Source: Chrysomallon squamiferum
Lineage: Eukaryota; Animalia; Mollusca
Assembly: GCA_012295275.1 (NCBI GenBank)
Contig: CM022672.1
Span: forward strand, 25,358,001 to 25,422,000
Direction: 5' to 3'
DNA length: 64,000 nucleotides
This document shows, piece by piece, positions 16,718 to 57,670 of this stretch. How positions within the stretch are numbered: the first letter of the stretch is position 1; each line of letters opens with the position of its first letter. A program made the position numbers and the translations under genes. The notes below the pieces were generated by a model. The model saw only the letters and a program-made list of their open reading frames with translations, did no database searches and was not told where the DNA came from.

Positions 16718-17113
16718 CTAGTCAGGAGTGAATCGTAAGTTCATGGGGGAGATTTTCCCCAGTGGGGTGTGTTCAGGTCCACGCGGCCGCTCCATCATGA
16801 TGGAGTCGTAGCTGTCGTCCAGTTTGCTCTCATCAAGCTGAGATCTCAGATTCTGAATCTGTTTTAACAAAGCCTTCGCATCTTCTCTAGTCTGAAAACA
16901 AAGACAGTTTTTATTAAGAGTTTTTTTATTTGCATGAAAAATCACTCACACATGTATTTGTAACCCTGAACATAAAATTGACTTTTGACCGAGCACTTAT
17001 TTTTTTCAGTTTTGGTATTTTGTTGAAAAAAGTAACCTAAATGACTTATCTAATAAAAACACCACCACCACCACCACCACCACCACCACCAACAACAACA
17101 ACAGCAGCAGCAT

Positions 17114-17171
<58 letters not shown>

Positions 17172-20100
17172 GTAAAAACAGTAATAATAATATTAATAAT
17201 TAATTTATAATGCACTGACAGGAATTGTATTAACATCAGGTATTTTGACAGTCACTTCAAAACAAGACAAACCATGCTATTTACATTTTGTTAAGTGTTC
17301 ACTACAGTAGAGGGAAAGTCAAATTTATGTCAAGCACATGGTTTTTATTTTTTAGTTAATAGGAAATCCTATACATATCACCCTATAAAAAATTAGTATT
17401 AATAATAAACAAATGATATAAAATTTCTTTTAAAAATCAAGAAGATATAAAATAAATAAAAAAGAAAAACAAGAATAAGAAAACAAAAGAAGAAAAAATA
17501 AAACAGAAAATATAACAAACCTCTGGAAACTCGTAGCACTTTTGCGCTGCAGTGTAAGCGTCATCTAGCATTCGTCTGCTGAGGTAGAAATGTGCCAGGT
17601 ACTTGTATGCTCGACTCTGCTCCTTGGCATTTTCACCCTGTAAAACAAATAACAAACTCAACTGTTAAAAAAACAAAAAGTGAAAACAAAAGAATAATCT
17701 TTACAAATAAAAGTAACGTATCTATAAAAAAACAAAAACACCTAAAAAAAACCCACAAACAAATGTAAAATAATTACACATAAGTTTTATACTTAAATTT
17801 TATATAAAAAGGAAAAATATTTTGCAGAAAAGTAATTACACATACTTATATGCTAATATATTAGTTAAACCCCCCCAAAACTACAATTTTCTTTATTATA
17901 TATATATATATATATATACTCATACACATATTTTATTTTGCCCTAATCAAAAACCCATAATTAAAATATACAATATAAACATTCACATGAGTATTTTATA
18001 TAATGTTTATTTATATGTATTTAAAGAAAAGCAGTTTTTCCTTCATTAATTTTGGTAAATTTAAATATATAAACCTGTCTAACCTGACAAACATACAAAA
18101 TATAAAAATACCCCTTATGAATATTTTAAATCATGTACCTTTACCTATAAACATAAAAATGTTTTCCAGTGGTTAATTTCATCTTAATATAAAAATTCTG
18201 ACTTGCATATGTGAATTTTTAAAAAACATACCTAAAAGTAGTTTTGTAAATTAACATACAATTTAATACTTACTCCTACTCTGTGTAAATAGATCATTTA
18301 AATAAATTAAAAAAAAACCTAATATCTAACATACAAATATATTAAAACCTATAGATCGATTACAAAAAAATATTTATAAATTAAGTTTAATGTTCTACCC
18401 ATTTCTCCCACTATTTATGTATAAAAATCATGTAACTATTAAAAAACACATCTAACATCTGATTAAACATTACATTAAAACCTGCTGTCACATATTATAA
18501 AGATATAATTATATAATAAGTTTAAAACTTACTTGGTGTCTTTCCATCTCATTCATTAATTTATGTATATAAATCATCAAAATATTTAAAAAAGCCCACT
18601 CCTAACATACAAATATGGTGTAGTTACAGTTATAAAGTAATGTTTATAAAATTACTTTAAAACTTGTACCAACTATATCCATTTCTATGATTATTTTAAA
18701 CATCAAAAATACATTTAACATCTAGTTACACAAATATATTAAAATCTGCAGAAATAAAGACTGTGAAGAAATGTTTAAAACACAAATTTAAAACTCATTT
18801 CTACTCTGTCCATTTCTTTGATTGATTTATATAAATAAAAAAATAAATTCAACATCTAGTTATATTAAAACCAGTACATAAAGATTATAAAGAAATGTTT
18901 ATTAAGTAAATTTAAATCTTACTCCTTGTCTTTCCATCTCACTGATGTAGTCTGTGTATGCATAGGCTGCCTGCTCATCTTCTTGTAGCTTTTCATACAG
19001 TCTAAAATAAACATCACACAGTTACTGTAAACTTCATTTAGTTCAAACCATGTGAGTCTGAACTACCCAGAATATATTCATATCAAGCTGACTGGACATG
19101 TGGGTATAATAGAAAAAAAATAAAAAAAAAATAATATATATACATAACCACAGACTCTCCCCCACACCCAAATAAATAAATAAATGATATATGATATGAT
19201 ATGTTATGATATAATATAATAAATAAAATAAATTTAAAAAATAAAAAGAATATATAAAATAGAATATAATAAAATTAATTTTAAAAATAAAGTAAAGAAA
19301 AGAAAGGAGAAGTGAAGTGAAGTAAATAAATAAATAAATAAATAAATAAAAAATAATCTGGCGTAACAATGTAATCCAATGTAAAAAAGTAGCAAGTTAA
19401 AACTTGAGGAACAAACACTATTATAATTTTTTTCTTCAGTCATACTAGATTTTTCCCTAAGTCTTTGTGGAATAAAAGATTATTTAAAAGGATTTCAAAA
19501 CAGTTTGATTCATATAAATTTCCATCACATGATAAGAATTTTTCTGTCATAAGAAAAAAAAAAAAAAAAAAATAATGGGAATAAACACTTTGTAAATTGT
19601 TTTTATTTTTCTGAACTTAAAAATAAATTATATTTGAACAACCATAAAGATGGGAACAAACAAAAACTGGAACAAACTGATGGGAACAAACACTGGAACA
19701 AATATATGGAACAAACACTGGAACAAATATATGGGAGCAAATACTGGAGCAAACAAAATAATACATATACTGAAATAGATAAATAGGAACAAATGCTGGA
19801 CAAAGTGAAGATAAAAAAAATACAACAAAATTTCCCCAAGAAACCCACCAATCAGAGATAATAATAAAAAACCCACATCAAACTGTGTAAAGATAAAGTT
19901 AATAAACTTACTTAGCCAGTTTGATTAGCGCCATTCCTTCAACATCACCTATAGAGTGTGCCTTCCAGAAACACTTCTTTGCTTCCTGAAGTCTTTCCAG
20001 ATTTTCATAGCAATCACCCAGAGCAACAAGCATTCTAGAGTCATTTGGCCTGAAAGGAATCAACTGATGTATACATATTACAGTATATATATATATATAC

Positions 20101-21470
20101 ACACACACACATGACACACACAGGGGTGTTTTCACTATGCTACAAGGGGTGTTTTCAAATGCTATGTTGTCTAAAGTATGTCTTTAATTATTCTTTATTA
20201 TTCCAGTGACAATTCTGTTTAAAAAATGTGGTTGTAATAAAAGCTAATCAATCTGTCGGTTAGTACCTACCCATTCTTTTTATCTGCAAGAAACTGTGTG
20301 TGAGTTGTTTGTTTTGCTATTAAAGTAATACATGAGATTAAAAATATCCTATTTCTGATGCCAAAATGTATTACTGCATATGTGTTTAAATCCAATATAA
20401 AATAATATTTTGTGAAGAATTTTCTATTACCTCAGTTGTTGAGCCTGTCTGAAGTAGTAAAGAGAATATGAAGGCATTTTCAAAATTTCGTATGTTTGAC
20501 CAAGTCCATACCATGCACGATAGTCACGTTTATTCACCTCTACAAATAAAAATAATAGTAATAAAAATTAAACCAAAAGAACCACCTCTACAAAAATACA
20601 AATAATAATAATAAAAACATAAATTACCTCTGTAAAAATATAAATAATAGTAATAAAAAAATGCCTCTACAAATATAAATAATAATAATTAAAAAAGAAA
20701 AAGAAAATAATAATAAAAAGAAAAATCACTTTGACAAAAAAAAAAAAAATAATATCAATAATAAAGAAATAAGAAAATCACAAATACAATTAAAAACAAA
20801 ATACACAACCAAATAATTTTTCCCTTCATATTTCTATAGAATTACTTAAAAAAGGTTTTATTGTAAAATTAATGGAAATCAATCTAATAAAATGATGACA
20901 TTTAAAACTAAATATAAAGGATAAAAACAATAAAATGGCTTTGTTATTTTGTATTTTTCTCGTTAATTTTCAACTGCTGAAAATAAAACATTATTTTTTA
21001 ATCATTAATGTTTTTTTTTTAACCAAAGGGAGATAAGAAGCAAAGTCTAAATACACATTGTACAAATTAATTTTATCTATTACTGTTAAAGATAAAATTA
21101 AAATCATTAGTTGAAAAATAAGTCATAAGATTAAAATTATGATGTTTTATAATTCACAATGACTCACACTCAGTTTCAAATTTTATTATTTAAGTCTACA
21201 GTTTTATCTATGCAATTACATCAATGCCTTGGATAATTCTCAGTTAGTCTTTATTATTTAATTTATCTCTGGCCATGTGAAATAATAGCCTATATTACAA
21301 ACCTATTGCCTGTCTGTATGCCTGGATTGCAGCAGAGATATTTTTCATTTCCATGAACTCGTGACCTATGAGAGTTCTAGCAGACAGGTAGTGGGGATTG
21401 AGTTTTAGTGCTCTCTGGAAATACAGAATTGCTTTCTCATGCTGTGAGCGTAGTGAGTAGTAATTACCTG

Positions 21471-21514
<44 letters not shown>

Positions 21515-24500
21515 TAATAATAACAACAATAATAATAATAACAATACAATGATAATAATAAGAACAAATAATAAAAATCATAACAACAATAATAAAAAAA
21601 ATATAACAACAATAATAGAAATAAAAAATAATCATAGAAATAATAACAATAATAAAATAATAATAATGATAAAGATAATATGAAATAACAGAAATAATAG
21701 CAATAATAATAAAATAAAACAAAGACAAAAATTAAAATATTTAAATAAGGAACACATCCAAAATTTAATATTTTCAAAATGACAGCAAAGTATCAGTATC
21801 ATTTAAATTTAAAATAAATACAAACAAATATACTTTTGGTAAAAAAAAATATGATCTTTGAGCAATTCTTAAACATTTTTATCCTTTACAATGTGCTTTG
21901 TATTAAAGATTTATGGTTCCAAAATAGTGAAAATACAATGAAGGTATGCTGAGCACAAGACAATCTGCATTATTCTGACAAAAATGAAAACTCAATTCGG
22001 ACACACAACCCAATGTATTTGTCTGTCTAAACTAACTGTATAAAACAAACAGTTCACTGTACAACTCACCTATAACACAAGTCTCCACTGTATTTGTCTA
22101 TGTCTAAACTAACTGTATAAACTGTCACATAAAACAAACAGTTCACTGTACAACTCACCTATAACACAACAAGTCTCTGTATTTGTCTATGTCTAAACTA
22201 ACTGTCACATAAAACAAACAGTTCACTGTACAACTCACCTATAACACAACAAGTCTCCATTCTGTATTTGTCTATATCTAAACTAACTGTCACATAAAAC
22301 AAACAGTTCACTGTACAACTCACCTATAACACAAGTCTCCACTGTATTTGTCTATGTCTAAACTAACTGTATAAACTGTCCCATAAAACAAACAGTTCAC
22401 TGTACAACTCACCTATAACACAACAAGTCTCTGTATTTGTCTATGTCTAAACTAATTGCAGAAAACACAGTTCACTGTACAACTCACCTATAACACAACA
22501 CGTCTCCATTCTGTATTTGTCTATATCTAAACTAACTGTCACATAAAACAAACAGTTCACTGTACAACTCACCTATAACACAACAAGTCTCCACTCTGTA
22601 TTTGTCTATATCACAGCACTGATGAGCCAACCGTGCCAGATCAGCTCGCATTTCCTATTTGTTAAAGAAGAACGTTATATTAACAAGATCAAGAGAATTT
22701 TTTTTATGAAAAATACAAAACACATATACAAAAAAAATAAAATCATTATTTTGATAATTGACTTATTCCTGTTAAACATTAAAAACATTATGCATAAGAC
22801 CAGTAGGAAAAACATGAAACTGTTTCCAAATAATCCAATACAACTAGTGTTTACTAGAGTTTTTATAGACAACACTTTATCAACACAGACATAGTATTTT
22901 GGCTTTTAGAGACTATCAGTGCTGAAACATAGAGTGATATGATTAACAAAGTAGTTAATTTTTTATCCCTTAATGTGGCCTTAAATAAACTTTTACAAGT
23001 AATATAAAAACCCATTTTCACTTAAAAATCTGCACATTTCTGATTAAATTAAATTGAACTATACCTTAACATACAGCAGATTGGAGTAAATATCCATATT
23101 TTCAACTCTGTAAGGATCCATCTTCTGTAGCTCTGAAAATGCTGTAACTGCTTGGTCCACCTCTGTGAAAATATTTACACATATAAAATATTACTGAATG
23201 TTTAACTGTATCTTTACAACAGTCTGTTTGTGTGTGAGTGGCTCTTAAACATCCTGCTGTTTGTGTGATGATATTTGAAATGAAAAAGAAATAGAATTTA
23301 GAAGTTTTCCTTGTAACCTTTTTGTTAGTGCAGAATGACAGGAACATTACTACAGCTTTTTAAACTGATTTCTCATCAATTTTGATTTTTAAAAACATTA
23401 AAATTTGTATTAACCCTGTGAACTGGAATCTGTTACTACAGATGTATCATATTAAGTAAAAAGGTATGATAATAAAAAAATAGAACTGGATTTTTTGTCA
23501 CTGTTTCATAAGGGAGATATTTTGTATTTTGTCACCTTGAATGTAAACAAATAAAAGAAAAGATGTCTGACATTATGAAATAAGACCCATAAACACAGGA
23601 AGAGAGAAATAAAACACACACACAGTTACCACACCTATGCATGCACACATCCACAAACACAGCCCAAACCCAAATGCTAATACTCTACTCTCTTCCCACA
23701 TGCTTACCTCTCATATTATGATAGCACACTGCAATCTGGGACACAACATAATTGCACTTGGAGAATCCTGAATCAAGGAAAGTTTGGTAGATTTTCAAAG
23801 CCTCTTCATTAAGCTGTAACTCCAGATAGACGTAGGCTAGAAACAGCTGCTTGGCCCAGTGATCTGGAAGCTGTAGAGACTGTAACTGAAAACATAACAA
23901 AAATAAAAAATAATTTCTATAAATGTAACTGAAGATTCAACAAAGACTGATGTAATACGATAAAAATGTTAAATAATTTTAACTGAAAATTCAACCAAAA
24001 TTTAAACAATATGTTAAAAATAAAAAATAATTTAAATAACTATAACTGAAAATGTAGTAAAGATCTAATACCATCTATTTTTTTTGGGCAAATTCAGTCA
24101 AATTATCTCTACTTATTTTTTGACACTATTAAAATTAAGCCATTGTCACTAAAACAAAACATTCTCTAGATTTAAAAAAAAAATTTTGCTGGTATAACTG
24201 CAAACAATTTGTCAAATTACTGAGTTATGATATTACTGTTTCTCTGTCTGTAACAAGGAGAGCCAACTCTTGCCAGGAACCCCGATGCAGTGGTTCTCTG
24301 TTCACTGCTTCGACAAACACTTCAGTGGCATCTTTTATTAAATCTAATTTTCTGAGAATAACACCATATCTAAAAGAAAAATATTTGTTATGTCAAAAAT
24401 AATTTCATAAGAAGCCCTTCCTCTCGTCTGTTAATATTGAACAATGCTAGGTTTAACATTTCAAAATAAATTTATTAAATGAGATTTTTTGTTGTAATCT

Positions 24501-26424
24501 TCTCTTTTTAATGTTTATACAATGGTTTAATCTATAATTTCATAGATTCTGCCCCAACCCCTACAAAAAAAAAATCCCATAATTTTTTCAATAATTATTG
24601 TTTAAAAGGAAAATAAATAATAATAAATATAAAAAGGGAGGCTACTCTAACGTGTATACCAATAAAAAGATAACTTACAGATAAAGACCAAATCCATCCA
24701 GTTCATTGTTAACCTTTTTTCTGCTCAATTCATTTCTCAGAATCTTCAGATTTTCATTATCCTGCAAATCGGCTGACACTAAAATTGTGGTAACAGACAA
24801 AAACAATTAACATTCTTTTTTAAATAAATATAAAAATAAAATAAATAAATAAACACACAAGATAATAATTAGAAGAAGAAGGAGGAGGAAAGTAAACACA
24901 ATAATTTAAAAACAAATACAATAAAATATTAAAAATGTCAAATAAATAAATACCATAATTTCTGTTAACAATTTATTGTAAATGCTTTAAATTCATATTA
25001 CAGGAAAACATTCAAATTAAAAATAAGAAACATATCGAAAACATCCAAATAGTTTTGTTAATGATTTCAATTAAATCATATTTGCTTTTAATAAAAAAAA
25101 TGAAAAAAAATATCATCATCAAATATCCAGCACTAGTAAGTCACTAAGTAGACAAAAACACTAATTAAAAAAGGCCACAACTGTTTCTAGATTTAAAAAA
25201 ATAATAAAATAATACTAAAAAAAAAAAAAAAAAAATATTATCATCTTTTGTTTTCATATATGTACATAACAGTTAACATAAAATATATAAAGAACACAAT
25301 AAAACTGATTTATAAATGATATTATTGAAAAGTGCACACATTTTACTTTCTTTCTAGTATTATGCTAGGAAATTAATAATTTGAATCACTGTATTACCAA
25401 CAGAATCAGATGCATTGTCCAGCCTGCACTTCTCATCTGCGAGGTATCTCGAGTAGATGTGAATGAAGTAAGCTTTCTGACTTGTGCAGCCCTCCACCAC
25501 ATTGGCTGCTCTGCTGTATTCCTTGAGATCAAAGTACGAAGTGGCAAGACTGTACTTGTCAAACTCTGACCAGAAATCCTGAAACATTAAATGCAGACAA
25601 ATAAATATATGCACATACATCATACCCATACATATATATAAAAGCATGTCTCCTCTCCTTCACACAAATAAAAATTATATACAAAAATGTTTATGTTTCA
25701 TAAACATAAATAGTACTTGTATAGAAAATAAAATGTGCTTCAAATTACATGTATATCTATACAAACACATACCTGATTTTCTGAGACCTGTAACAATGAT
25801 GGAACATCTACGTGGACATCAAGACATGAAAACATTTCACTAGCCCTGAAACATATTTCAAACAGAATGAGACCGTTTGGTACATTAATAATTATTCTGA
25901 TGAAATAATAACATATACCAAATAACAAATATACAGACACTAACATAATTACTTACTGTTATAATTATTATAAATTATAATAATTATATTAACTGCCATC
26001 AATGAACGATTAAACTGATTTGCATTCAGCATTGTGTCATCTATCGTATTGAATTTGAATGGCAAACGGATATCATACACTGTTGAATGTTTATGGGCAA
26101 ATAGAAGATTGCCGTTCTTTTAAATAATAAAGTTATATCAATCATCACAAATATACTTTATTCAATTTACTATTCAGAGTAGTGGCAAATTTTCATTCTA
26201 AATCGAAATAAAGACACGTTCGGAAATACATTTAAGCACCTAATAAAGTTAAAATAATTAATTGTGCGCTATAACATTACTCTGTCAGTCCTGTATTTTG
26301 AAAAACAACTAATACACTTTTACCATTTTGCTCCTTGTAATAATCTGCGTTGAGTACATTCTTTATAAACACGAATCAAATCTGTTTTCATTCGAGTAAG
26401 ATCAAACATTTTGAAGTCCGCCAT
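16718..26424 (-). CDS. CDC23: Cell division cycle protein 23 homolog (APC/C subunit 8), 14 exons, 575 aa
   Basis: Exons 26324-26424, 25773-25845, 25398-25578, 24679-24778, 24237-24369, 23708-23885, 23065-23162, 22573-22654, 21303-21467, 20431-20539, 19912-20049, 18923-19001, 17521-17637, 16718-16891; all GT-AG, phases consistent, 1728 nt. Diagnostic motifs [100 protein letters not shown]. Confidence 0.97.
18260..18945. repeat. Old, diverged ~130-bp tandem array in CDC23 intron 12 that includes the exon-12 3' end and donor
   Basis: Recurring ctaacat..aaatatattaaaacc...aaatgttt...tttaaaacttac block at ~130-bp spacing (~18270, 18390, 18530, 18660, 18790, 18920). The 18530 copy keeps ATGAGATGGAAAGACACCAA|gtaagt versus the exon GTGAGATGGAAAGACAAGGA|gtaaga. 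Confidence 0.65.
19655..19802. repeat. Short-unit (12-15 bp) minisatellite (tggaacaaacac / tggaacaaatata)
   Basis: About 10 variable copies in CDC23 intron 11. Confidence 0.8.
20535..20690. repeat. Four ~40-48-bp copies of the CDC23 exon-10 acceptor junction
   Basis: cctct(a/g)..aaa..taaataatagtaataaaaa at 20535 (true junction), 20583, 20626, 20664; sense strand reads ttt..tag/cag|AGG. Confidence 0.75.
22014..22611. repeat. Young ~75-89-bp tandem array in CDC23 intron 8 built from the exon-8 3' end plus donor
   Basis: Seven copies of TTATAG|GTGAGTTGTACAGTGAACTG; donors at 22070, 22159, 22239, 22324, 22413, 22488 and the true one at 22573. Higher-order ABC-ABC' structure with 254-bp period. 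Confidence 0.95.
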
Positions 26425-42015: not shown

Positions 42016-43309
42016 AGTTTCATTCAGTGATATAAATAGTCTTTATCAATCTGAAATTATTATTATTTTTTTTTAATCTTAACGAACCAAGTCTTTAAAA
42101 TAAAAAATAAAAAGAAGAAGAAGAAGCTCACAAAATCTTCAACTTACCTCCGACATTAATTTCATGCTGTCAAAAAACAGTCTGTGAGTAGCCGTGTCGG
42201 ACAAATTTACCATCAGCTCAGTTTTCGTCTGAAATAGCAGTACACTCTGTTTGTTTGAAATAGCAGTACACTCTGTTTGAAATAGCAGTACACTCTGTTT
42301 GTTTGTTTGAAATAGCAGTACACTCTGTTTGTTTGAAATAGCAGTACACTCTGTTTGTTTGTTTGAAATAGCAATACACTCTGTTTGTTTGTTTGAAATA
42401 GCAGTACACTCTGTTTGTTTGAAATAGCAGTACACTCTGTTTGTTTGAAATAGCAGTACACTCTGTTTGTTTGAAATAGCAGTACACTCTGTTTGTTTGA
42501 AATAGCAGTACACTCTGTTTGTTTGAAATAGCAGTACACTCTGTTTGTTTGTTTGAAATAGCAGTACACTCTGTTTGTTTGAAATAGCAGTACACTCTGT
42601 TTGTTTGAAATAGCAGTACACTCTGTTTGTTTGAAATAGCAGTACACTCTGTTTGTTTGAAATAGCAGTACACTCTGTTTGTTTGAAATAGCAGTACACT
42701 CTGTTTGTTTGAAATAGCAGTACACTGTTTGTTTGAAATAGCAGTACACTCACTCTGTTTGTTTGAAATAGCAGTACACTCACTCTGTTTGTTTGAAATA
42801 GCAGTACACTCTGTTTGTTTGAAATAGCAGTACACTCTGTTTGTTTGTTTGTTTGTTTACTGGTTGCTTATTGACTGTTTATTTATTTGTTTATTACTGG
42901 TTTGTTTGTTTATGTGTTTATTTATTTACTTATTTCCCGATTTGCTTGTTTATTTACTTACTTACTAGTTTATTTATTTATTTATTTATTTATTTTCTAG
43001 TTTGAGTATTTATTTATTTACTGGTTTATTTATATGTTCGTGTGTTTCTGTTATGTTCACTGTGATTATATATTATTTATTTTTTATTGTACATAATAGG
43101 TTGCATTTGTTTTTTGTCGTGCATTCTGCAGAGAGATATAAACGACGTACATAATACATATACAATATAGACTGTTTCTGAACGTTTCTGTACGTACGTG
43201 TATTTATTTATACACTGCACATAGCGTAAAATAGTAAAGAATTTACTTACAATTAGATCTTTAACAATTTTTTCAAGATCACTCACTGAATGGTCTAGTT
43301 CAGACTAGA

Positions 43310-45938: not shown

Positions 45939-47306
45939 TATATGCATATATGTGTATTTTACTTGTTATATCCTGTAATCTGTTTTTATAATGTATGTTT
46001 ATCTCATAGTATGAACACAGACAATACTTGGGGCAGCATGACACACAATCTCACAAACATATTATTCTAATATTTCTCTCTGTCATGAATAATTTATATA
46101 TATATAGTGAGGTAGGTTTGTATGTATGTATGTATGTATGTATGTATGTATGTATATGTTTGTAGATATGTATTTATATAGGAAAGTATTAATGTCTGTA
46201 TGTATGTATGTATGTATGTATCAATGTTTGTATGTTTGTATGTATATATGTATGTATGCATGTATGTATCAATGTTTGTATGTTTGTATGTATATATGTA
46301 TGTATGCATGTATGTATGTATGCATGTGTGTATTAATGTTTGTATGCATGTAGATAGGTAGGTAGGTATTAATGTTTGTATGCATGTAGATAGGTAGGAA
46401 GGTATTAATGTTTGTATGAATGTAGATAGGTAGGTAGGTATTAATATTTGTATGCATGTAGATAGGTAGGAAGGTATTAATGTTTGTATGTATGTAGATA
46501 TTTAGGTAGGTATTAATGTTTGTATGTATGTAGATAGGTAGGTAGGTATTAATGTCTGTATGTATGTAGGTATTAATGTTTGTAGTATGTAGATAGGTAG
46601 GTAGGTATTAATGTTTGTAATGTCTGTATGTATGTAGATATTTAATGTTTGTATGTGTATGTAGATATTTAGGTAGGTATTAATGTTTGTATGTATGTAG
46701 ATAGGTAGGTATTAATGCTGTATGTAGATAGGTAGGTAGGTATTAATTTTGTATGTATGTATGTAGGTAGGTAGGTAGGTATTAATGTTTATATGTATGT
46801 AGATAGGTAGGTAGGTATTAATGTTTGTATGTATGTAGATAGGTAGGTAGGTATTAATGTCTGTATGTATGTAGATAGGTAGGTAGGTATTAATGTCTGT
46901 ATGTATGTAGATAGGTAGGTAGGTATTAATGTTTGTATGTATGTAGATAGGTAGGTAGGTATTAATGTTTGTATGTGTGTAGATAGGTAGGTAGGTATTA
47001 ATGTTTGTATGTGTGTAGGTAGGTAGGTAGGTATTAATGTTTGTATGTGTGTGAGTTCTGACATACTCACACGATCGTGAATAGAACTGAAGTCAGTTTT
47101 CTGACACATCTTGACAAAGCTGGTGAGTTTCTTCTTGGCCTCCTCTGGTAGCATCTTGTATTTCTCCAGAGTGCTTGTTTTAATGGCACTCAGATATTGA
47201 TCTATGTATGATAAGTACTAAAAAGAGATAAAACAGCCAACATTAAAAACACACATACACATACATATACTCACATGCACACACTCATACAAACACATCC
47301 ACATCT

Positions 47307-54782: not shown

Positions 54783-57670
54783 ATATAAAAATGTCATGTA
54801 GATGAAAATAATTAAATAGAGTGATAATGACAGACAGACAGACAGACAGACACAGGGAGAGAGAAAGAGAGAGAGAGAGAGTTGAAAAAGAGAAATAAGA
54901 ACTTACTATTGTCTATTTCTGTGACTGCATTGACAATGTCATCAAATTTCAAAATTGTTTTCATTTTTTTGGATATAGTTTGTGTCACATCTGATAAAAC
55001 AAAATTGTTATAATCAACTGTTAGATTTCTCTGTATAACATCCTCCTTTGTCAGTCAGCATAAAATACAAAATCTATACCAAGTGTGTGCTCAGGTTAAT
55101 GCTTATTGAACTGGTTGGTTCAGAAAATCACCTTCCCAGTAATAATTGGTTTATCAAACACTTAGGCACGTACTGCCCTGTGTTTGATAAAAATGTGATA
55201 TGTCTTTTCATGTCATGTCATTATTTGAAGAGATTTTGTTACAGCATGAAATAATTTTAATTGGTCAAATGGTTTTTGATATAGAGACACCACCAGAGTT
55301 GGAGAAAATGGACTGTTGATGTTTGTATAAACGACTTGTAACTTTGCTTCATATTATCATATTACAGTTTTTAAACAAAAGCAAATATTCTAATAGGAGA
55401 GAAAGCTCAAAACTGAAAACTAATGTAAATGTGATTAAACTTGACCTTGTCAGTGCCAAAATATACACTCTTTAAAAAAAAAATAATATATATTATTATT
55501 ATTTTCTTAATATGTCTACTGACAATGTTATAGTTAAAACTACTAAATGTGTGTGTGTTTTGTTTGTCTGTAATAATTTGTCCATGTGTATGTTTATGTC
55601 TTTGTATTTGTGTTTATGTCTGTATATATATATATGTATGTCTGTGTTTGAATACATGTCAAATATAAAATGTAACTGATAAATAAATTAATAAGAACTA
55701 AATAAATGTAAAATTAAAACTATAAATACTGAATGCAATCAGTGAATATATAAATAAACAGTAAACATAAACAACTAAAAAATGTAAACACAATGAAAAA
55801 TGAATGCAATCATTGAATGCTAAATACAAACAGTAACACTAAAAGTAAACACTAAATGCAAATAATTAGTAAATATTAAACATACACAGTGAACAATAAA
55901 TGTAAATAATTAGTAAACACTAAACATACACAGTGAACAATAAATGTAAACAATTAGTAAACACTAAATGTTAAGAATTAGTAAATACTAAACATACACA
56001 TTGAACAATAAATATACAATTAGTAAATACTAAATGTAAAGAATTAGTAAATACTAAACATACACAGTGATCACTAAATGTAAATAATTAGTAAATACTA
56101 AACATACACATTGAACAATAAATATACAATTAGTAAATACTAAATGTAAAGAATTAGTAAATACTAAACATACACAGTAATCACTAAATGTAAATAATTA
56201 GTAAACACTAAACATACACTTAAATGTAAACAATTAGTAAACACTGAATGTAAACAATAGTAAACACTTAATATAAACAATTAGTAAACTCGAAAAACAA
56301 GCAATTACTGTTCACATCCTGTATAAGTGACTTGAAAACAAGGTTAAACATGTCTTTTATAATGTACCAGATATGCTGAAAACAACAGCAACATCAAAAC
56401 CATGGACATTAATGTTAATAACAATACAATATTACTGACTGCAACATACTACATCCCCTACAACACCAAATACTACTATCACTGCTAGTATTACTACTAC
56501 TGCAACTATTCTACTACTTCTATTGCCTCAACCTCTTCTACTACAACTACTACCACCATCATAACTACTACTAGTTACTATTAATTAATACCACCACAGT
56601 AGCTTGTTCTTCTTCTATAGTTACTACTATTACTGCCACAACTACCACAATCACTACTACTAAAACTGCTACTGCTGCTGTTACTAATATTTATTCCACC
56701 ACTACTGCTACTACAACTACTTCTATTACTTTTACTACTACTACAAGTACTACTATCAATTAATACTGCCTTTGCAGTGTCTTCTTTTACTCCAGTTACC
56801 AATACCACTACTTCTGTTACTATTGCCAGTACTATTACAATACTTTCTGCTACTACTCTATCATTTCCACCAAATACTATCTTGGAAAGGAACATTAAAA
56901 TTAACACCCACGCACACACTCACACACACTCACACACACACACACACACACACAACACACACACACAGAAATATAGACAAATATATAATTTATTCTTATC
57001 TCACCTTTGTAAGGATTTCCAAGAAGGTCTTAGCATCATGAAGGCTGTCTATGCATCCTTTATCAGCTTGATCAATTGCCTGAGTAAGAAGAATATTTGC
57101 TTTCCTAATATACACAGCGCTAACTCTGAAAAGAAATAGAAAAATATTACAGAATATAGAAGATAAGGTGTGGGCAATGCTGTCTGAATAATATCAGAAT
57201 ATGAGAGCAGACAAATTATTTTAACGCCTTTGGCTGGAGTTACAGCCTTTATTGACTCCTTCAGCTTCAGTATGGTGCACATCGTAGAACTTCTACTAGA
57301 AGTATTACGCTCATATTGCATAGCCAAGTCCACTACATCAACACACATATGTTTTTCTATGGACATCATCCGCTTCTTCTTCTAAGCACTGTCCTTTGCA
57401 CTCACTTTCTTACGATCCATGGTCAGAAAAAAAGAAATTTGGGAAAATACTGCACGAAACGCGAACACAACACAACAGATATACTTCCACGGCCAGGTAA
57501 CCACGCGAAGTAAAAGAGACGCGGGATGCTGGCCGGATGTTGTTGTTTGTTGCGCCAACAAGCGTGCTCGTAACTCGGATTTTGGCTCGCAACTCAAGGC
57601 AAATATCGACTAAGCGACTGTTCGTAACTCGGAAAACTCGTAAGTTAGCACTCGTAAGTCGAGGTACAAC

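Follow-up and report, generated by a model that had tools for sequence, protein, structure and literature searches.

Donor-spanning minisatellites are described in F7, 6-16, CBS, LAMIN B2, and PDGF (PMC1557585). In human F7, the first unit of a polymorphic 37-bp VNTR in intron 7 spans the exon-intron boundary and is followed by 4 to 8 identical pseudo-donors, and only the most upstream donor is used (PMC1557585). The downstream donors are reported there to be functional but silent, and adding or deleting units left the choice of donor unchanged (PMC1557585; Borensztajn et al. 2006). Repeat units are 81 bp in PDGF intron 4 and 100 bp in LAMIN B2, and the 6-16 minisatellite lies in intron 2. According to the same source, LAMIN B2, PDGF, and F7 use the authentic donor only, whereas 6-16 and CBS use near copies too (PMC1557585). 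The CBS intron 13 unit is 31 bp and, to judge by its name (c.1444_1467+7), consists of 24 exonic and 7 intronic nt (PMC2630376).

In lancelets, tandem copies of exon-intron boundaries, termed mirages, occur in the genes for Adh3, globins, troponin C, and PGBD5, many of them with AG/GT (PMC3087553, PMC3902484). These two papers describe arrays of 3 to 6 units that differ between haplotypes, normal splicing, and edge units that escape homogenization, and mirages have already been proposed there as a route of intron gain. Intron gain by tandem genomic duplication is described as the duplication of an exonic segment, with the duplicate spliced out as a new intron (PMC3443670; Yenerall and Zhou 2012).

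The window analyzed here is a 64,000-nt stretch of the Chrysomallon squamiferum genome that contains CDC23 (APC8) on the minus strand. Intron 8 of this gene holds a junction-spanning minisatellite, of a class already known from the VNTR in human F7 intron 7 and from the lancelet mirages. It is most probably a polymorphic minisatellite of ~85-nt units, the first of which spans the CDC23 exon 8 donor, and one that is likely functionally silent. The parts of the gene that bear on this interpretation are the following.

16718..26424, minus strand: CDC23 (APC8) coding region, 14 exons, 575 aa, frame intact
22573..22654, minus strand: CDC23 exon 8, 82 nt, the last 39 nt being the repeat template
22567..22575, minus strand: authentic exon 8 donor TAG/GTGAGT, the sole donor seen in use
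21303..21467, minus strand: CDC23 exon 9, behind a strong acceptor; the first complete codon of the exon encodes the Asn that matches N339 of human APC8

In the homologue comparison, the CDC23 protein has 90.8% identity to that of Gigantopelta aegis and 71% to that of Haliotis. The native exon 8 donor scores higher than 33 of the 36 authentic donors called in the window. The intron that follows it, intron 8, has a length of 1,105 nt. The exon 8/9 junction is in phase 1 and splits a Gly codon directly before the Asn matching human APC8 N339, so that the position given for it in the original prediction is borne out by the alignment, which was made using the Gigantopelta protein. This Asn is presumably the coactivator-binding residue (human APC8 N338/339). 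A literature search for APC8 N338A together with Cdc20 gave no match. In PMC5717348, APC8B is given as the binding partner of the coactivator C box and APC8A as that of an IR tail. Elsewhere in exon 9 (21380-21375, minus strand), Arg stands in place of the Trp of the TPR motif AWTL. ARTL is found in the Chrysomallon window and in Gigantopelta, and Trp in the 11 other homologues shown and in human; this is likely a peltospirid-specific change at a conserved TPR position.

The array comprises six units of 75 to 89 nt, each with a copy of the exon 8 end and its donor. The repeat unit corresponds to the last 39 nt of exon 8 and the first 46 nt of intron 8, and the exon-intron boundary thus falls inside the first unit. 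Seven identical TAG/GTGAGT donors result on the minus strand, with last exonic bases at 22573 (native), 22488, 22413, 22324, 22239, 22159, and 22070. Units 1 to 3 and units 4 to 6 form a 254-nt higher-order duplication, recovered by TRF as a period of 254 nt with 94% matches and a score of 1040, far beyond chance.

22488..22572, minus strand: unit 1, 46-nt spacer and 39-nt copy (22526-22488), then donor copy
22413..22487, minus strand: unit 2, 41-nt spacer and 34-nt copy (22446-22413), with a 5-nt deletion
22324..22412, minus strand: unit 3, 55-nt spacer and 34-nt copy (22357-22324), with 2-nt and 3-nt deletions
22239..22323, minus strand: unit 4, 46-nt spacer and 39-nt copy (22277-22239); the second 254-nt block begins here
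22159..22238, minus strand: unit 5, 46-nt spacer and 34-nt copy (22192-22159), with the deletion as in unit 2
22070..22158, minus strand: unit 6, 55-nt spacer and 34-nt copy (22103-22070), of the same type as unit 3
21989..22069, minus strand: last spacer and tail, with a possible seventh copy without donor at ~22026-21989

The array predicted for CDC23 intron 8, with its seven donors and six copies, is thus present at these positions, and its proposed origin by tandem duplication is supported, the duplication spanning the exon 8 donor. The two 39-nt copies are in frame, each able to insert 13 residues as predicted, and the four 34-nt copies, which fall into two types differing in their deletions, would shift the frame as predicted, each leading on paper to a stop at codon 328. 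The predicted unit order of 34-34-39, twice over, holds on the plus strand; in transcript order, the copies run 39, 34, 34, 39, 34, 34 nt, with spacers of 46, 41, 55, 46, 46, and 55 nt, and the order is 39-34-34 twice.

At the far end of the array, the tail aligns to the exon 8 end with a score of 30, equalled in 12 of 19,780 random windows. This resemblance rests mostly on one 11-nt word, and the remainder, matched by 1,696 of 19,735 controls, is not significant. The tail may be either a decayed seventh copy without donor or intron sequence of the original kind; in the latter case, the 11-nt word common to it and the exon would have seeded the duplication. The segment across the exon 8 donor was probably duplicated by slippage or unequal exchange and then expanded, and the array may keep turning over, the 254-nt block having apparently been duplicated itself. 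An exact search with the 27-nt junction pattern gave 0 matches in metagenome_contigs, which is uninformative on related snails, and no paper on this locus was found among the literature matches listed for the species together with tandem repeat and intron.

Of the 82 nt of exon 8, the copies cover only the 39 nt at the 3' end, and exon 8's own acceptor lies outside the repeat unit. The AG before each copy, which had been proposed as a new acceptor, is accordingly no copy of the exon 8 acceptor. Acceptors were scored with a small weight matrix built from 36 hand-called acceptors in the window. The scores of the six proposed AGs range from -3.3 to 1.3, so that 32 or more of the 36 authentic acceptors lie higher. 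As a score of 1.3 or more is also reached by 143 of 344 decoy AGs from the introns of CDC23, the proposed acceptors score like chance intronic AGs. Each of the three spacer types counted contains 4 to 6 AGs; within 20 nt upstream, the proposed acceptors have 1 to 3 competing AGs, compared with none for 28 of the 36 authentic ones. The best spacer AGs sit further upstream, score higher than 10 to 11 of the 36 authentic acceptors, and would yield other exon lengths. Tandem exon duplication, in which each copy has its own acceptor and donor, was rejected as a description of the array, the upstream AGs being spacer derived and scoring like decoys. Nor do the spacers resemble the mini-introns that they had been called, as they measure 41 to 55 nt, compared with 194 nt for the shortest intron among the 34 that were called in the window. 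A distal copy could nevertheless be reached as a cassette through an intron of normal size (22572-22278, 295 nt), and size alone therefore does not exclude a cassette.

If the copies were regulated poison or cassette exons, the 34-nt copies would lead to NMD, the 39-nt copies would insert 13 residues in a TPR helix, and the APC8 level would be set by copy number. The frames of the copies fit such a scheme (39 nt in frame, 34 nt frameshifting), and the insertion would adjoin the N339-equivalent residue in a subunit that binds the coactivator C box (PMC5717348). However, the acceptors are weak and crowded by competing AGs, and neither of the two spliced contigs described below includes a copy. 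Furthermore, the 13-residue duplication is present in 0 of the 83 homologues with the motif DKY..GNYY (of 120 homologues), one of which has an unrelated, longer insert. The unit series also varies between samples; constancy of sequence between individuals and species would be expected of a poison exon, and holes in the genomic contigs are no proof against it. Regulated use of the copies is highly improbable on this evidence.

Eleven sequencing runs were listed as contigs, two of them recorded as RNA, and eight were examined (X7, X10, and X11 were left out). Although the listing gives run X6 as "DNA?", one of its contigs is a spliced CDC23 transcript, and its word share is only exon sized (0.13); it behaves as an RNA library and was treated as one. 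The RNA run X9 has no contig over 21730-23250 and is thus uninformative on the array. Two spliced contigs, from two studies, cross the site, and both join 22573 directly to exon 9 (21467). The first (X8 record 15, RNA, depth 3.3) matches 22616-22571 with 0 differences, includes bases unique to the native exon, and continues into exon 9. The second (X6 record 16, depth 7.2) matches 22656-22571 with 0 differences, covering exon 8 end to end, and its loose ends are the exon 7 end and the exon 9 start. Use of a distal donor or inclusion of a copy was seen in neither of the two, at low depth and in contigs, from which rare forms drop out, and no contig of X8 or X6 lies on the array. The RNA animals may carry other array alleles, and NMD was not blocked in these samples, so that NMD-sensitive forms would be hidden. 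The original prediction regarded the array as inert if the 22573-to-21467 junction alone were seen even under NMD block; that junction is the only one in both contigs, and this part of the check stands, while RNA with NMD active answers it only in part. With splicing confined to the first donor in the assembled transcripts, the copies would be removed as part of intron 8.

These observations also bear on the broader proposals made for the array. Exon or intron birth, a poison exon, and copy-number control are not upheld, given 22573 joined only to 21467 in both contigs, weak acceptors, spacers much shorter than any intron called in the window, and units that vary between samples.

Some observations argue against silence of the array. 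Every copy has the same strong donor, and the spacers contain moderate upstream AGs (scores of 4.0 to 5.1). By analogy, human 6-16 and CBS, in which the nearest pseudo-donors are used as well (PMC1557585), also argue against it. The array could then be leaky without being regulated, with low-level splicing at the first one or two donor copies, transcripts with a premature stop passing to NMD, and a small fitness cost. Read-through to any of the six distal donors is predicted to give a premature stop at codon 329, CBS and 6-16 provide human precedents (PMC1557585), and rare forms would be invisible in contigs. Against this, no such contig is found in X8 or X6, and the F7 downstream donors are silent unless they match the consensus perfectly, according to PMC1557585. 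A leak of this kind is unlikely.

Most known cases of recursive splicing concern very long introns, and a recursive splice site is an AG/GT with a strong acceptor inside a long intron. The six AG/GTGAGT points of the array, scored as acceptors, reach 2.6 to 4.9, above 7 to 11 of the 36 authentic acceptors and thus in the lower third. They were rejected as recursive splice sites of this kind, given these scores and an intron of 1,105 nt. Were they nevertheless used for stepwise removal of intron 8, the mRNA would be unchanged, and such use of the six points would leave no trace in mature RNA. However, AG/GT occurs at the copies because exon 8 ends in AG, as do the exons at 17 of the 36 authentic donors in the window; the first point lies 85 nt from the native donor; and the protein would be unaffected. 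Stepwise removal is extremely improbable.

The original prediction also depended on genomic reads containing the array, and contigs of all five genomic runs examined (X1 to X5, from three studies) carry it. The X1 contigs fall into a flank piece of unique sequence, a core of 70 nt, a loop of 75 nt, and an exit piece, and X3 has a matching flank end and loop; the contig ends in X1 suggest near-identical 85-nt units. X5 has a unit with a 3-nt spacer deletion, and C replaces T at 22276 in X2, X4, and X5. A relative of the unit 3/6 type with a short spacer is present on one X4 contig; among the contigs listed for the five genomic runs, this type occurs only in that altered form and only in X4. One X2 contig includes the unit 2 spacer and diverges where the 5-nt deletion of the window starts. 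The unit 2/5 deletion is found in none of the contigs listed for X1 to X5, and the 39-34-34 series of the window was not recovered from them; no depth is recorded for the bins specific to 34-nt units in X1, X3, and X5, nor for most of these bins in X2, although gaps of this sort in contigs do not prove absence. In contig depth, the repeat core stands at ~3.2 to 3.6 times the flank in X1, 3.6 times in X5, and 7 times in X4, and the loop at ~2.2 to 4 times; ratios of ~3 to 7 are weak hints of copy-number differences, as contig depth is no measure of copy number. The unit makeup differs between samples, and the array is polymorphic.

All five genomic runs have an extra A at 22705 relative to the window, which therefore may hold small indel errors. 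This and the absence of the unit 2/5 deletion from the contigs listed are what could be said for an assembly artefact. An artefact of the whole array is, however, barely conceivable: contigs of X1 to X5 lie on repeat-specific spacer-to-copy junctions, X4 contains the relative of the unit 3/6 type, and in the runs with listed depths for array and flanks alike (X1, X3, X4, and X5), the array is the deeper of the two. The array as such is no artefact, and only details of single units could be errors.

In a further reading, array alleles would act as a dial on APC8. More donors or 34-nt units would send more transcripts to NMD, and 39-nt units would now and then add 13 residues next to the coactivator-binding Asn. 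In humans, splicing can change with the length of a repeat (PMC10078293), and a dial on APC8 therefore retains some probability, even if it is very unlikely. If true, a segregating minisatellite would tune a core cell cycle ligase, with a cassette exon caught at birth. No sign of a function of the array was seen, and it would gain greater importance only if distal donor use were real and allele dependent.

CDC23 itself contains other repeats beside splice sites. In intron 12 (18960-18220, minus strand), the end of exon 12 and its donor recur at ~130-nt spacing in at least four decayed copies, the nearest of which passed the strict test (21 of 28 nt); this is an older array of the same kind as that in intron 8. 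In intron 9 (20700-20540, minus strand), three extra, AT-rich copies of the exon 10 acceptor (YAG/AGG at 20666, 20629, and 20587) precede the called acceptor at 20539, and in intron 5 (24060-23885, minus strand), three extra copies of the exon 6 acceptor (TTCAG/TTA) are spaced by ~54 to 63 nt; neither set was significant in the strict test.

Similar repeats are seen elsewhere in the window. A multi-exon membrane protein gene (59805-40152, minus strand, 18 hand-called exons), presumably prominin-like, includes 23 copies of a 26-nt unit (42230-42847) derived from the polypyrimidine tract adjoining the acceptor at 42228 (minus strand), with the AG kept only in the unit adjoining the exon. Large minisatellites in the same gene, at 55844-56289 (44- and 110-nt periods) and 46110-47052 (36-nt period), start ~20 nt from donors, and the donor is not copied. 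This gene also contains a 21-nt microexon (45503-45483), both ends of which adjoin GTGAGT, and an A run in its exon 50694-50542 may hold a frameshift. At 30550-30150 (minus strand), in a protease gene that we take to be trypsin-like, an acceptor region is present twice, with the copy ~400 nt upstream of the called acceptor; between the two acceptor regions, an element at ~30484-30188 has ~25-nt inverted repeats at its ends and is MITE-like. An open exon at 11990-11450 (minus strand), with upstream exons near 14942-14910, presumably encodes a TIR-domain protein.

Repeats targeting splice sites were considered and rejected. A tandem copy within 330 nt was found at 61 of 400 random intronic positions, 63 of 400 decoy GT/AG intronic positions, and 3 of 76 splice sites, a difference towards depletion at splice sites relative to introns (Fisher p 0.0055) that is to be read with the positions not independent, with 200 shuffles for splice sites against 100 for controls, and with exons outside CDC23 called by hand, two of them doubtful. 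Tandem copies are thus common in the introns of this genome. Arrays across a junction therefore look like a side effect of a genome prone to repeats, with any bias being towards too few of them.

A minisatellite that is spliced as if it were absent would be explained by how exon 8 is defined. Judging from the human F7 experiments, the spliceosome would take the most upstream of several identical donors, and this choice may be helped by exon 8's own acceptor, which is absent from the copies. Exon 8 would thus be defined from its own acceptor to the first donor and the copies removed with the intron, an outcome seen in the contigs. Any leak to a distal donor would give a stop at codon 329 and probably be removed by NMD. 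The basis for scanning of the F7 type comes from mammalian cells, not molluscs, and its extension to this snail is by analogy. Decay of the kind seen behind the exon 12 donor is likely how such arrays usually end, and CDC23, with a young array in intron 8 and a decayed one in intron 12, provides a picture of repeat ageing.

The locus adds a gastropod example to the known class of junction-spanning minisatellites, of which it has four features: a boundary-spanning unit, a reiterated splice signal, variation between samples, and the authentic donor in mRNA (at low depth). It fits first-donor selection that tolerates repeated donors, even in an essential gene, and its segregating alleles would offer a natural test of 5' splice-site scanning outside mammals.

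Intron gain by tandem genomic duplication was rejected for CDC23. The duplicated segment of that model contains AG/GT too, but in CDC23 a donor that was already in place was copied, along with intron sequence, within an intron that already existed; the segment holds 41 to 55 nt of existing intron, and the RNA contains only the ancestral junction. CBS is alike in that its unit consists mostly of exon end and donor, as in CDC23, but in CBS and 6-16 nearby pseudo-donors are used, which is not seen in the CDC23 contigs. PDGF and LAMIN B2 resemble CDC23 in unit size and in using the authentic donor only. The arrays of PDGF, LAMIN B2, CBS, and 6-16 have 10 to 25 units, compared with 6 in this CDC23 allele. 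The mirages are likewise invertebrate tandem copies of an exon-intron boundary; they are found in cephalochordates, whereas the CDC23 array is in a gastropod, in an essential cell cycle gene, and has a 254-nt higher-order duplication. With F7, CDC23 shares a first unit that spans the boundary and identical donors behind it, of which only the first is seen used; the F7 unit has 4 exonic nt and that of CDC23 34 to 39, together with spacer AGs, and one gene is from a mammal and the other from a mollusc.
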